A stretch of 53,057 nucleotides of DNA, filler included, from Dirinaria sp. TL-2023a (Eukaryota), in the NCBI GenBank assembly GCA_051941275.1. It is 3 parts of 3 records of this genome, joined end to end, with 100 filler letters (N's around TTAATTAATTAA, not from the genome) between each part and the next. Parts side by side here need not be neighbours in the genome. Positions count along the whole stretch, not along the records: positions 1 to 17,627 come from JAVEBF010000420.1; 2 more parts are not named here. One strand, written 5' to 3'. Below the pieces are notes generated by a model that saw only the letters and a program-made list of their open reading frames with translations, did no database searches and had not been told where the DNA came from. Below are positions 4,466-9,922 of this stretch, in pieces (positions within the stretch are counted from its first letter, which is position 1; the number at the start of each line of letters is the position of its first letter). Made by a program: the position numbers and the translations under genes.

Positions 4466-5485
4466 TTATTGGAATTCTTGCTCCTTCTTTTCCAACCGAA
4501 TGGTCGTCAACGCTGAAATTAGCCTACACATCTGTGTCGCGTCTTGGCCTACCTCTTCCCACAAGCGGCCAACGTCGCTGCCGATACCACATTGTTCAGC
4601 CGTCTTGAGGCTACGCGGGTCAATGAACGGAGCGAGGGCCGGCCATACCGCCTGGGCAGTGTCGAAAAAGATGTCGGACCCCACGTTACCGATGCCTTTG
4701 ACGCCTTTGATCATATCGCGCACTTTCGACGGAGACGATTCCGCATGCTTAATCATATTGTTCAGGTCCCCGTCTAGATACATTGGTCAGTAAGCAGTCA
4801 AATCTAGGTTTCTAAGCCTAAAGTTTACATGGACCACGATGTGAAGCCTCTCAAAGAGAGAAGGAGGCAACAACGTACCGTATTGCTCAATTACGAAATC
4901 GGCCAATTCCCCTAAGGCTGTTGCGGTTTTCTCGCGATACCTCGTGTATCCACCTTTCGTCAGAACCTCAGTCCTGCTCTGCCAGCTACTGTTCTTCAAA
5001 GTATACACATCATGATACCCGGCTTCAATCAAACATTTGACGCTCTTGTATGCCAGATCATGGGAGATTCGTGCCGAAGTCAACATAGCATGAAAGACGA
5101 AGGCGAGAATGGTCTCCGGAGTCGCTTCAGAGGCTTGCTTGAGGCCAATGTCGGAAAGAGGCAGATTACCGTATTTGGACAGAATGGCTTGAACTTTAGC
5201 GACATCAGCCGATGGTTTTGCGTCACTTTCGTTCTCAGGTTCTTTGGTTTGTGTGCCAGAATCCGGATTTCCGTGCTTGGTCTTCTTTGTTGGCGGAGCG
5301 CTGGTGTCATCGTGCTCGACCGTCGAGGTGCCATTAGCCACGGACTCTCCATCGGTGTGACTCCGTTTCCGCGTAGCTTGGCCTCGATCCGACTTTGTCA
5401 CTGTCTCGCTCTTTAAGTCCTTCTTGGGGCCTTTTCGAGACCCCTTTTCTGCTACCCCATGATCTCGTGTCCTCGTTTGCACCAT
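4466..5485 (-). CDS. Uncharacterised HhH-GPD/DNA-glycosylase-fold protein with basic N-terminal extension, 2 exons
   Basis: Two ORFs are joined in frame by a GT-AG intron (~4774-4878). Motifs LTSARIS, GGYTRYREKT, helix-hairpin-helix IKGVKGIGNVGSDIFF and downstream PFID. Fold assignment is from motif recognition only. Confidence 0.7.
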
Positions 5486-6295
5486 TTTGAACCGTTGATG
5501 CAAATAGACTGCCGGTGCGACCTTGAATATATCAATCGAAGTCCTACCTCAGGCAAATCGAAGTGAATGAATTTAGGAGCCTCAGTCGCACGGCATCCGC
5601 ATACGTCATACCTAAGGCCGCGCCAGGGGCCAAAGCGCGATTATCCCATTAATGCCCAATTAAGAGCGAGCTGAGTTGCACCAATTGTGGTTCGAGACAG
5701 CCAGACAGAATTCAGCTACACGAATGTAGGCTACCCACTATAAACGCATTGCTGTTTTGTTGTCTGTTTTAGTGGGAGCTGAAGGAGTGGTTGAAAAATC
5801 GTCATTCAACATACTCTTGCAAAGAATGCACTGTTTAATCAAAGTCAGGTTTCTTGGTCCTCGCATCTGAAACCAAGAGATTTCGAGTAATGGTCAACTC
5901 GAAGCTGTACTGTAGACCACCGCAGTGCCGTAACACATTGAGGGGTGCCAGGCGTATCATGGCTCGAATAACAACTTCGAAGCGCGAGAGACGCGGCGCT
6001 TGTCGACAAATCTTCATTTATAGGGTTTCACTAGGGCTTGAAAGGAGAGTCCTCATTGTGAAGGGAAATGGATTGATCTTCGAGACTGATTTTCTAGAGG
6101 CAGACACCGACGAATGAAGCTGTTGAAGTTCTGATCTCAATTGCAGCAGTCGAGTAGACCATACAAATTAGAGGCCTTTATCACAGATTTCGAACTTTAC
6201 GCTTTGGACAAACGCTTGGTTCGCTGATCGCGTTCAATGTTCAAGTACCTCAGATAATGTTGGGTTCCCAGAAAATGGCTCGAAATGCGGCATTA

Positions 6296-7898
6296 TTACA
6301 ACAGATTTTCATGTTTCCACTTCCTTCCTCCCTCACCTTCGAAGTACTCGCCCGCGACCTGTCCCTCCCCTCTAATGCGGTACTTGTAGATCATCAAACC
6401 TTCTAGCCCCACGGGTCCTCGAGCGTGGATCTTGTTCGTGCTGATCCCCACTTCAGTTCCGAAGCCGAACCTCATTCCGTCAGCCATTCGTGTACTGGTA
6501 TTCCAGAAAACACAGGCACTATCTACGCGGTCGAGGAAGCGGTCGGCGACCTCCTCCGTAGAGGTGAGTATGGCGTCTGTATGATGCGACGAGTGGCTGT
6601 TAATGTGCGCGCTTGCCAGGTCAACCGCAGCGTTGGCAGAGGAAACTTTAGGAATTGTTTTGATTGCGAGGATGAGGTCGAGGAACTCGGTGCTGAAGTC
6701 AGATTCTGACGCGTCTTGTAAAATGGCGGCTTGTGCTTTAGGGAGGATTTTCTCAAGTGCCATCCTCGAAACTTTGTCGCAGCGAAGTGATACGCCCTTC
6801 TCTAATAGCGCTGAAGCGGCATTTGGCAGTAACGTTGTAAGAGCTGCTTCGTCAACAAGTAAGGTCTCAACTGAGTTACAAGCAGCGGTGTAGCCTAATT
6901 TGGCATCGAGAATGACTTTGACTGCCATTTCAGGGTCCGCATCTTTGTGCAAATAGATGCTGCAAAGCCCATCTGCGTGGCCTAGCACCGGAATGGTAGT
7001 TTTGCTTTTGACAGTGCGGACGAGGTCGTTGCTTCCTCGAGGGATAACGAGATCAATGTATTGGTCAAGAGTTAGCAGAGAACCGATATCCTGGCGAGAG
7101 ATCACAAGCTGAATTGATGCGTTGGGGACGGATGTCTGAGAGAGGGTTGCAGATATGACAGACGAGATGGCTTTGAAAGATTCGATTGACTCTTTGCCTC
7201 CTGTTGCGGTTTAGTCGATTTGACTGGAAGCTTGATGGATAGCTGACCCTTTAAAATGGCTGCGTTGCCGGATTTGATGGCTAAAGACGTGATATTTGCT
7301 ATGACCTCCGGTCGTGCTTCGAAGATGATAAGAAGTACCCCAATTGGGCACGTTCTTCTTTCCAGGATGAGACCATCGTCGAGCTTAGTTTTGAGAGTTA
7401 CTTTGCCAACTTCCGGGCACAGCGCCACAAGAAACGTGCACCACAGTGTAGAACTAAACTCGGCACAGCACCAAATCTAATATGTAAGGCAAAAAACGAG
7501 AATCATCTGATAGCCTCCACTGTGGTGCAGCGCTCCGCAGCTACCGTACCTCTAGTCAGTTATACCGCATGCGTCCAGTGCTTGCATACAAATTTACCTG
7601 GATCATCAAGCTCTTGGACATCGATTATTCCTTGAAGCATATCCTCAAATTTGCCCTTTCTCCCCAGATCCAGCCTTTTGATGATGGCTTGACTGAGCTC
7701 GCCGTTGGCGGCAGCTTGGGAGGCGGATACAAGATCCTTCCTATTTGCTTCTAAGATTGTGTCTTTAGCATGTAAAAGAGCTCGATGAATGGCTTTCAAT
7801 GCATCATTCCGATCTTTGGCAGAGAGAACTGCAAGATTGCGTGACGAGATTGATGCCGCCTTAGCGATTTCCAGCGGAGTGGAATCGGTTAACGACAT
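6296..7898 (-). CDS. PRO2: Gamma-glutamyl phosphate reductase (glutamate-5-semialdehyde dehydrogenase), 3 exons
   Basis: PIGVLLIIFEARP, KSGNAAILKGGKES, DLVIPRGS, catalytic ACNSVETLL, FGFGTEVGIST, HARGPVGLEGL; introns 7410-7597 and ~7201-7247. Confidence 0.96.
7416..7550 (-). other. Long intronic RNA hairpin between branch point and distal 3' splice site of PRO2 intron 1
   Basis: Perfect 12-bp inverted repeat TGCACCACAGTG (7437-7448) / CACTGTGGTGCA (7518-7529). On the transcribed strand it extends with G.U pairs to arms 7550-7511 and 7456-7416. Confidence 0.75.
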
Positions 7899-8196
7899 TG
7901 TGGAATTCGGACTATGCTATCTTTGGAGAGAATAGCTCATTCTTCTAATGAGAATCTGGTGCTCCATAAGTAGATGCTGCAGGAACGGGGCGAGGGGAAG
8001 TGAGAAAACCATGTAATCCCAGATCAACGGTCTCGGACCGGCAAGACCGGCTAAGGCTGATAGCACTAACCACATTCACGGATATATCTCGGCCTGAACC
8101 TCGGTCCACAAGTGACGAACTTGAGGATGCTTCATGTTCTTTTCATTGCTTCAAGAGTTTTGAGCCTTTAATGCTTGTTCTCTGTCTCGCAGCCAG

Positions 8197-9922
8197 ATGG
8201 ACGGCGTACTACCAAAGTTACTTTCATTTCCGCCCCATCCTCCTCCCCCCATCCCTCTTTCTGATGCCGATTATGATACCCAGATAAAAAGCGTGCTGCA
8301 GCTACTCAATGAGACTTCCGCCCGGAAACTCACTGCGGGTGTGTCTGGAAGTGGAGACCTGCTGGATGTAAGCCTTGGTACTATGCAATGGACCAATCTC
8401 TCTGTCTAACATCAGCTAGATCTTGGATCCATCAGTCAATACTCTGCCTTACCTCTATGCTCTGCTTGCCCACATAAACGGCGCATCCAGTGGGAAGCTC
8501 GCATTCGGATCCGCGAATACAGCTCTGCTGCCGGGCGGTCGGTTATGGGAGCCCATGTTGACTTTTATGGATCGCTTCGACCCCATTCAGATCAGGTACT
8601 CTGGACAGGAATTCAGAAACTTGATTGCGGCTGTTGAGAAAGCGGCACGCCTGGCCCAAATGGTGAATCACAGCCTCCCGCGACGGATAGAGGACCTCGT
8701 TGACTTGTTTTATGGCAGCCATCGATCGCTATACGGCCGATTCGATCAGCAATCCTACGCCTCGACCCTTCCGGTGCTTGTTTCACATCCATCCTCCTTA
8801 TCTTTGTTCGACTCTGTCTTGAGACCCGTGATTTTGAAGCTGCAAAACCCGTACTCGACAACGATATCTTCACCTTCCCCACCTCGTCAGATAAAGTGGC
8901 GTACAACTCGCTTCATCCGTACCCCTGTTCAACCCATGATTCTAGTTCGACGTTCATCACATATTTCTCAGGACTTACGGACAAGTTGTCGTACAAGGAC
9001 CATCTTCTATACTTCCTCTTAGGTGGCATGATTTACACCGGCTTGAAAGATTGGGACCGCGCTCTACACTTTTACGAGATAGCGATCATGGCCCCTATCA
9101 TTAACGCGCCAAGTATGATCCAAGTAGAGGCGTACAAGAAGCGTGTTCTTGTGGGAGTTCTCGCTGAAGGGCGCGTAAGTGTCCCAGTTCCAGACAGGGA
9201 ATAATGAACCCGACTAATAATGCTACTAGTTACTTCCCATGCCAAAGAATACCATCAACAACGCGAGCAAGTGCTACCGAGCGCTTGCTAGAGCTTATGA
9301 AGCTCTCGCCGAGGTCTTTCAGCAGTCTATCGCCAATGAGTCGGACGTGTCCGAAGTCCTGAAGGAAGCGCAAGCGGCTCACCAGATCTGGATTGACGTA
9401 GGTTTAAGTGCATGTCGATCCATTGCCAGATAACGCTAACGCGGTGTCAAGGATACCAACTTGGGGCTCGTCCAGCAGGTCTTAGCGGCCTTCCGCCGCT
9501 TCTCCATCCTTAGGCTTGGAAAGACCTACGCAGCCCTAAGGATTGCTGATGTCTTGAGGCAGACTAGAACAGCTCCTGCAGACTCTGCCGAGACCGCAGC
9601 ATACCTCAAGAGTCTCATTGCGTCTGGCCAGCTAAAGGCGAGCGTCACCGAGACTGGCAGCGACCCAGGTTTCTGGGTCTTGCGGTTCGCGGAAGAGATG
9701 GCGGAAGCTCCGTCTGAAACTCAGATATACGAGGATTTCACCAATGTACAGGGGCGACTGAAGAAACTTGCTGCCCATCTCAAAGAATCGGATCGCAAGC
9801 TCAGCCTCACCCGGGAATATTTGGACTGGGCCAAGAAGATGGAGAAGAGTGCGGCCGTCGGCGCTGGTGCGGATGCGGATGATCTCGCAGCTGCCGATGA
9901 AGATGTGATGATGGATACATAG
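8197..9922 (+). CDS. CSN3: COP9 signalosome subunit 3, 5 exons
   Basis: FDPIQIRYSG, HLLYFLLGGMIYTGLKDWDRAL, SMIQVEAYKK, LGLVQQVL...ILRLGKTY (PCI region); four GT-AG introns join the ORF pieces. Confidence 0.88.

Follow-up and report, generated by a model that had tools for sequence, protein, structure and literature searches.

The 53,057-nucleotide stretch of DNA analysed here (the window), taken from Dirinaria sp. TL-2023a (GenBank assembly GCA_051941275.1), carries on the minus strand at 6296-7898 a three-exon ProA/PRO2 gene, the product of which is glutamate-5-semialdehyde dehydrogenase, alias gamma-glutamyl phosphate reductase. Its first intron is probably a distant-branch-point intron with structure-dependent splicing, in which a long hairpin is predicted to bring the sole fully productive acceptor up to the one consensus branch site and to cover the cryptic AG dinucleotides in between, a plan that recurs in 23 of 28 fungal loci and upholds the structural proposal made in an initial annotation of the window. 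The same annotation also proposed that the hairpin acts as a regulatory switch, for which present evidence offers no support; the arrangement is probably constitutive and old. The mechanism itself is already known from yeast, the new element being the conserved intron position and hairpin plan in a fungal PRO2 clade.

The identity of the gene is given by exon 3 alone, which scores 324 bits against the NCBIfam model NF001221 (glutamate-5-semialdehyde dehydrogenase), above the cut-off of 289, and so belongs to that equivalog family. The proA profile TIGR00407 runs on through the exons and over the junction of intron 1, reaching position 81 in exon 1 and resuming at 83 in exon 2, and the best solved relative of exon 1 is the gamma-glutamyl phosphate reductase of PDB entry 1vlu (E 2.1e-10). 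The layout of the gene and of its first intron, with positions counted along the window, is as follows.

7598-7898, minus strand: exon 1, with the ATG at 7898-7896, ending ...GAT GAT CCA G in phase 1; TIGR00407 positions 5-81; PDB 1vlu
7410-7597, minus strand: intron 1, 188 nt, delimited by the junction in an RNA contig
7592-7597, minus strand: 5' splice site GUAAAU of intron 1, from the sequence and an RNA contig joint 7409/7598 with GT..AG ends
7555-7560, minus strand: branch-site motif ACUGAC with the putative branch A at 7556, the sole CTRAY of intron 1, kept in relatives
7518-7550, minus strand: predicted 5' arm of the hairpin, with P1 7550-7543, bulged A 7542, P2 7541-7537, P3 7536-7531, bulged C 7530 and P4 core 7529-7518
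7543-7541 (UAG), 7535-7533 (GAG) and 7522-7520 (CAG), minus strand: cryptic AGs within the 5' arm of the hairpin
7449-7517, minus strand: apical region of some 69 nt that forms small local hairpins, varies from lineage to lineage and is missing in a short clade
7416-7448, minus strand: predicted 3' arm of the hairpin, with P4 7448-7437, P3 7436-7431, bulged UU 7430-7429, P2 7428-7424 and P1 7423-7416
7410-7415, minus strand: unpaired tail CGGAAG, terminating in the used 3' splice site AAG 7412-7410
7248-7409, minus strand: exon 2, starting UU GGC AAA GUA, which reads (V)GKV; RNA contig; proA positions 83-135
7201-7247, minus strand: intron 2, ordinary, 47 nt, GTCAGC...CAACAG, with a joint at 7199/7247 (cut +1) in an RNA contig of run X2
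6296-7200, minus strand: exon 3 to the stop codon, an open reading frame with the NF001221 match

Six public sequencing runs carry parts of PRO2, five of them labelled lichen metagenome, and four (X1, X2, X4, and X6) were compared over 7000-7900, the RNA-library data consisting of two small runs (X1 and X2) of one sample. The junction is established by an RNA contig of X1 (282 nt, depth 8.76, 95-99% identical), which skips 188 nt with GT..AG ends and joins 7409 exactly to 7598, so that the AAG at 7412-7410 is an acceptor in use. Depth gaps over the intron interior in the X1 and X2 RNA contigs were given no evidential value. X6 is identical to the window over 7525-7737 and unspliced, and X4 (kind 'DNA?') represents a relative that diverges by 4% (796 nt compared, 32 differences, one gap) and contains the whole intron.

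The splice signals of intron 1 are those first annotated, namely the donor GTAAAT at 7597-7592 and a single branch-site motif, ACTGAC at 7560-7555, the CTGAC of which occupies intron positions 39-43 (7559-7555). The branch point would be the A at 7556, an assignment drawn from consensus and conservation rather than from mapping, which stands 42 nt from the donor and 146 nt from the AAG; introns with a branch more than roughly 45-50 nt upstream of the 3' splice site are regarded as having a distant branch point. Twelve AG dinucleotides (ending 7581...7410) are present in intron 1, and only the one ending at 7410 restores the reading frame LDDP-V-GKVTL, each of the others leading to an early stop. 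The annotated uniqueness of this acceptor thus holds among the intronic AGs but not beyond them, as an AAG ending at 7401, 9 nt inside exon 2, keeps the frame as well with the loss of three residues. Similarly, the intervening YAGs had been counted as five, all leading to a stop; the stops were found in every case, within 18 codons, but the YAGs number six, the CAG ending at 7520 having been overlooked.

The minimum-energy fold of the intron pairs 7550-7518 with 7448-7416 in the four helices P1-P4, P4 being a run of 12 perfect base pairs (UGCACCACAGUG/CACUGUGGUGCA) that corresponds to the perfect core described at the outset. The longer stem originally drawn (7550-7511/7456-7416) stands to this extent only, since its extra apical pairs are missing from the minimum-energy fold, in which the apex of about 69 nt forms small hairpins of its own. 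The fold statistics are firm: the entire intron reaches -72.7 kcal/mol (z = -3.61, 1 of 200 shuffles being as good), and the branch-to-acceptor segment (145 nt after the branch motif) reaches -65.5 kcal/mol (z = -5.82, 0 of 200 shuffles being as good), so that a stable stem which beats shuffled sequences is predicted as expected. The antisense strand of the same segment folds with only -34.5 kcal/mol, 31 kcal/mol less than the sense strand, in keeping with the remark that several G.U pairs of the stem work only on the transcribed strand. Five unpaired nucleotides lie between the branch A and P1 and six between P1 and the G of the AAG, which together make up the 11 unpaired nucleotides foreseen between the branch A and the acceptor, and the best-placed UAG (7543-7541) is buried within the predicted 5' arm as had been supposed. 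There are 10 AGs between the branch A and the acceptor; the predicted fold pairs at least the G in nine of them, thereby masking these cryptic sites, and the remaining unpaired one is a UAG located 4 nt past the branch A. In the thermodynamic model, the six basal base pairs of the stem have a pairing probability of at least 0.98 from 5 to 65 °C, and the stem base in three relatives (L016, L025, and L005) is predicted to be paired with a probability of at least 0.94. The predicted fold is therefore that of a stable bridging stem of the COF1/UBC13 type (z = -5.8, with 11 unpaired nucleotides left).

Two further features of the intron were recorded alongside the main hairpin. A small 8-bp hairpin at 7565-7591, between the donor and the branch site, holds 4 of the 13 intronic differences of X4, one of them pair-breaking, and seems unconstrained. 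In the apex, 11 nt at 7452-7462 (RNA sequence CGAGUUUAGUU) show 91% complementarity to 7380-7390, near the beginning of exon 2, and could provide an alternative pairing.

Conservation of the arrangement was established by scanning metagenome contigs with the exon-3 protein, which yielded 80 loci. Fungal sequences accounted for 28 of these (exon 1 identity 61-70%), whereas L020, L021, and L060 were dropped, their upstream exons being missing, and the other 49 were prokaryote-like and without introns. An intron was found at the identical phase-1 position, after D/E-D-P, in 28 of 28 fungal loci, and 23 of them follow the plan of the window (13 distinct introns of 100, 183, 208 or 212 nt): CUGA(C/U/A) 34-42 nt from the donor, a spacer of 4-7 nt, a long hairpin, and 5-7 nt to the AG. 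With the window included, there are 14 distinct hairpin-type introns, all of which carry the CUGA motif at the matching place and fold better than dinucleotide shuffles (z -2.8 to -5.8); their linear branch-to-acceptor distance ranges from 59 to 171 nt, yet the summed unpaired spacing is confined to 9-14 nt. The other five loci, comprising two distinct types (L033 and L042), carry an ordinary intron whose CUGAC precedes the YAG by 8 nt, and these hairpin-less types fold no better than shuffles (z +1.1 and -0.3). The acceptor AAG of the window is not conserved, CAG or UAG being found in most relatives.

In the tree built from the exon-3 protein, all sequences with the hairpin group together (94/97), and the hairpin-less pair (95/96) is their sister. 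Both sub-clades of the hairpin group include long forms: in one the window joins the L001 group (98/96), in the other L006 joins L015 (96/92). The long form with P4 is therefore held to be ancestral and the 100-nt form a secondary deletion, the five 100-nt forms making up one nested clade (99/97). The short form is a loss of P4 and the apex with P1-P3 left intact, the hairpin of this five-sequence clade closing on a 5-nt loop. With both parts deleted in one sub-clade and P1-P3 common to all, P4 and the apex appear to be dispensable.

Several observations on the relatives stand apart from this comparison. In L001 (2605-2787), L006 (2573-2784), and L015 (2578-2785), the branch CUGA is complementary to the acceptor UCAG and the minimum-energy stem reaches both splice signals, which may be a chance result of two consensus sequences. 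The apex of the L006 intron (2573-2784) contains an AAG at intron position 146 that, as acceptor, would add 22 in-frame residues with no stop, being the only intervening AG of any lineage without an early stop. Two to four different PRO2 lineages were found within single metagenome assemblies (L001-L025, L042-L044), for example L001, L010, and L015 in one and L005, L012, L024, and L042 in another, so several fungi share these samples.

The evolutionary distances involved were gauged from four-fold degenerate sites of exons 1-2, at which the window shows 21-32% identity to every other lineage and is thus saturated; the identity of the segment lying between 5' splice site and branch site was rejected as a neutral yardstick, as optimal alignment over 30 nt inflates it (0.56 versus 0.64 for the arms). 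Despite this saturation, the hairpin arms are still alignable on sequence alone. RNAalifold on the resulting arm alignment gives 29 pairs with 94.4% of cells able to pair, a proportion that falls to 31-49% if the 3' half is shifted 1-3 columns out of place and is reached by 12 of 1000 column shuffles (92.7 +/- 0.7%). An alignment-free exchange of P1-P3 arms between lineages gave mean energies of -23.4 kcal/mol for cognate and -19.0 kcal/mol for non-cognate arms, with 94 of 20,000 permutations as good, a result somewhat inflated by relatedness. When positions were indexed from the 3' foot in each sequence's own fold, both-sided changes appeared at 9 of 21 P1-P3 positions, such as G-C versus C-G at the basal pair and C-G versus U-A in P2. 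The 10-bp core of P4, UGCACCACAG/CUGUGGUGCA (20 letters), is identical in the window, L001, L006, and L015 lineages, and the motif was found nowhere else in the 53-kb window or the 80 loci. At the shorter range of X4, the intron shows 13 differences, with 1 in 62 stem nucleotides versus 12 in 126 elsewhere; the sole stem difference, G to A in the RNA at 7538, turns a G.U pair into A-U, one more falls in the UU bulge and the others outside the stem, 4 of the 13 being in the apex. Taken as a pattern of sequence change, these comparisons indicate that selection maintains the hairpin, chiefly through conserved sequence and through substitutions that G.U pairing tolerates, compensatory change contributing to some extent.

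In the splicing of intron 1, U2 would first recognise ACUGAC, the sole consensus branch site, whose A at 7556 stands 42 nt from the donor. As soon as transcription has passed the 3' arm, the predicted hairpin of four helices (7550-7416, about 133 nt) would form. The hairpin would loop out 133 of the 146 nt, thus bringing the AAG at 7412-7410 to within 11 unpaired nucleotides of the branch A, and would sequester at least the G of nine intervening AGs; the tenth would be too near the branch A for use, and exon ligation would hence be directed to 7410, the junction seen in the RNA contig. We infer that the hairpin forms in the cell and that splicing requires it, the latter on the indirect evidence of conservation in 23 of 28 fungal loci, arm exchange and natural both-sided changes. 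The hairpin probably originated when a palindromic segment entered an ordinary intron of some 53 nt, downstream of its branch site and ahead of its acceptor: a canonical 53-nt intron remains when 7550-7416 is taken out, which suggests an ancient palindromic insertion that later became indispensable. It would then have been locked in, since any loss of pairing in this essential biosynthetic gene would divert splicing to AGs that break the frame. Such an ancient insertion is compatible with the structure-dependent splicing favoured here.

A number of points weigh against this explanation. Formal covariation is not significant, as both-sided change occurs in 2 of 29 pairs and 686 of 1000 column shuffles reach that figure; the conservation of the stem that was to be sought among orthologues was thus found, and the covariation was not. 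The weakness of the signal is in part attributable to the sequence-only alignment, in which the 5' arms are misplaced for the window and for the L001 group. Run on the five short introns alone, RNAalifold gives 18 pairs, none with both-sided change, and the table showing 9 of 21 positions, being fitted to each sequence's own fold, leans towards structure. The pair counts come from custom scripts and not from a structural alignment of all 14 sequences. A MAFFT whole-intron alignment followed by RNAalifold returned 0 pairs, for it set the arms of the window and those of the L001 group out of register and put the 3' strand of the short introns in the wrong place, and a covariance model of the five short introns matched those five only, the long apical insertion not being bridged. 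The depletion of X4 differences in the stem is a trend only (Fisher p = 0.064), and the preference for the sense strand is not universal, the antisense folding better in L015 and equally well in L004. A pure structural role also leaves the letter-for-letter identity of the P4 core in four saturated lineages unexplained. In the RNA data, a contig of X2 has intron 2 removed, yet extends 26 nt beyond exon 2 into intron 1 (7410-7435); this library contains RNA that is unspliced or differently spliced at intron 1, or contaminating DNA, although in a de Bruijn contig the two features are not proven to lie on one molecule.

The regulatory claim of the initial annotation was that temperature, osmolyte or proline, or a protein would remodel the hairpin and divert the transcript to isoforms subject to nonsense-mediated decay (NMD), the apical loop serving as a sensor. 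Restated as a response to temperature, desiccation or osmotic state, a metabolite, or a protein, with exposure of 5'-arm acceptors (UAG 7541, CAG 7520) giving frame-shifted NMD transcripts that tune proline synthesis, such a switch is unlikely. Decoy acceptors do lie 12-40 nt past the branch A in the 5' arm of every lineage, all giving early stops, and weakened stems of this kind make acceptor choice temperature-dependent in yeast UBC13 mutants (PMC3239191) and in S. pombe (PMC9508853); the stem base of the window and of three relatives is, however, predicted to remain paired up to 65 °C. The k-mers of the X2 RNA library span the exon 2/intron 1 boundary, yet no junction across intron 1 other than the productive one was seen in the X1 and X2 RNA contigs (one contig, X1), so that the expected use of 7410 was borne out and that of an alternative acceptor was not in the two RNA runs of one sample. 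The 5' strand of P4, CACCACAG, resembles a strong acceptor and is invariant with its complement in four lineages despite saturation, a constraint beyond what pairing by itself would demand, but P4 and the apex were lost in the short clade, making any sensor there dispensable, and the apical loop is not conserved between lineages; nor is the weak AAG acceptor conserved. Rfam gave no match, riboswitch or other, in the intron of the window or in the five orthologous loci at E<=1, and only two chance-level matches over 7000-8000 at E<=10, namely mir-2 (plus strand, exon 2/intron 2) and snoR9 (mostly exon 1). Several specific candidates were set aside on these grounds: an intronic snoRNA or miRNA for want of a credible Rfam match, an RNA thermosensor of the APE2 type because its marginal stability is not seen in basal pairs that stay at 0.98 or above from 5 to 65 °C, and a riboswitch because no conserved ligand-binding aptamer is apparent, the apex being unalignable where it is not missing altogether. 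A narrower proposal, in which the invariant P4 would pair the decoy acceptor CACCACAG with an anti-decoy strand and be opened by a trans factor or by co-transcriptional kinetics under drying or osmotic stress, thereby shifting PRO2 between productive and NMD splicing, is more doubtful still.

An independent function of the hairpin, and of P4 in particular, with bridging as a by-product, is improbable; the candidates would be a binding site for a sequence-specific protein, a substrate from which RNase III/Dicer makes a small RNA, or a palindromic site at the DNA level. The 20 invariant letters of the P4 core would be accommodated by such a role given the saturated four-fold sites, but the short clade deleted P4 and kept P1-P3 together with their spacing to the branch site and the AG, the core motif has no second occurrence in the sequences searched, and no Rfam family is matched; likewise, sense and antisense fold about equally in several lineages in the manner of a DNA palindrome, whereas the sense strand of the window is 31 kcal/mol more stable. 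Branch motifs are degenerate in filamentous fungi, and a cryptic non-consensus branch point near the acceptor could be used, with the upstream CUGAC irrelevant and the hairpin merely tolerated. Relatives do carry GUACG 7-9 nt before the AG; nevertheless, the last 26 nt of the intron in the window are without an A except in the AAG, no CTRAY-like motif follows intron position 43, and CUGA with its distances to donor and stem is kept in 14 of 14 hairpin-type introns while the surrounding 5' segment is not, which renders this alternative very improbable. Lower still is the probability of nested splicing of the stwintron type, with the hairpin removed first as an internal intron, or of a young mobile palindrome resembling a miniature inverted-repeat transposable element (MITE) or introner, inserted recently as a selfish element. 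Symmetrical proliferating introns are known in the Hypoxylaceae (PMC8469720), the sister clade lacks the hairpin and a canonical intron is left without it, but 7550-7416 has no usable internal donor, the 100-nt forms are too short for an internal intron, and the RNA contig records one 188-nt excision. A stwintron was rejected on account of this single joint and the lack of a consensus donor within 7550-7416. The mobile version is opposed by the absence of a second copy from the 53-kb window and the 80 loci, to which the search for MITE or introner copies was confined, and by an element older than lineages with saturated synonymous sites.

Structure-dependent splicing of PRO2 intron 1 can be placed among several known systems. 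Fungal TPP riboswitches control alternative splicing, and the likeness lies in an intronic RNA structure that chooses productive versus unproductive splice sites; unlike these, the PRO2 intron has no Rfam match and its apex is not conserved. Splicing of APE2 is reportedly of the thermosensor type, and thermosensing of this kind needs marginal stability, whereas the PRO2 stem is predicted to stay folded to 65 °C. By analogy, the best-supported match is to the distant-branch-point introns of S. cerevisiae COF1 and UBC13, which were demonstrated by compensatory mutants to need such a stem (Gahura et al. 2011, PMC3239191). In UBC13, disruption of the stem redirected splicing to a CAG that lies 38 nt from the branch point, and normal splicing returned with compensatory changes (PMC3239191); the use of a proximal CAG upon stem disruption is shown in UBC13 and predicted for PRO2. 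Both systems share a long branch-to-acceptor spacer (155 nt in UBC13 versus 146 nt in PRO2) and a stable stem by which the effective distance is reduced and cryptic AGs are hidden (PMC3239191). They differ in that the function of the PRO2 stem is inferred instead of being based on mutants, and in that its host is a lichen-associated filamentous ascomycete with normally short introns (intron 2 being 47 nt); compared with COF1 and UBC13, the PRO2 design has also been traced through a clade with saturated synonymous sites and an invariant 10-bp core.

Of 88 yeast introns probed in vivo, 21 are reported to have 'downstream stems' occluding cryptic 3' splice sites (PMC12350175, Nat Struct Mol Biol 2025); RPS23B and APE2 (Meyer et al. 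2011) are related cases, and intron 2 of S. pombe rap1 is a comparable structured branch-point-distant intron (PMC9508853). Structure-bridged distant-branch-point introns are demonstrated in both budding and fission yeasts (PMC3239191, PMC9508853). The rap1 type is described in PMC9508853 as having short spacers (39 nt) and weak heat-sensitive folds dependent on Sde2, Cactin, and Tls1, in contrast with the spacer of 59-171 nt and very stable helix of the PRO2 type. The symmetrical stwintrons and introners are likewise fungal spliceosomal introns with long inverted repeats and predicted hairpins, but PMC8469720 portrays them as multi-copy, recently proliferated, and bearing terminal repeats, with symmetry unneeded for excision, whereas the PRO2 hairpin is single-copy in the present data, ancient, and located wholly between the branch site and the acceptor. 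No such intron was found in the full-text literature for filamentous or lichen-associated ascomycetes, nor for PRO2, subscription papers being outside the scope of that search, and the statement that PRO2 had no earlier description is in agreement with this.

The surroundings of the gene can be summarised briefly. A divergent neighbour on the plus strand (8704-9201) encodes N-terminal helical repeats like those of COP9 signalosome subunit 3 (PF22788, E 5.6e-27), and an open reading frame downstream of PRO2 (4790-5548, minus strand) has no Pfam match. Four runs of 44 N, in two pairs spaced 12 nt apart (17628-17671/17684-17727 and 35354-35397/35410-35453), were taken as masked or unresolved sequence.

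As a practical consequence, the exon 1/2 junction may be mis-modelled in the genomes of lichen fungi by gene predictors that look for a YAG with a branch site close to it. A switch, if true, would link RNA structure to the synthesis of an osmoprotectant in desiccation-tolerant fungi, and a P4 decoy switch, if true, would constitute a structure-gated control of proline synthesis by unproductive splicing throughout a lichen-associated fungal clade. Apart from any switch, PRO2 intron 1 offers a natural series, with a 10-bp core that does not vary, one sub-clade in which the upper helix is cleanly deleted, and an ordinary intron in the sister clade, which shows the parts of the stem that selection has retained.

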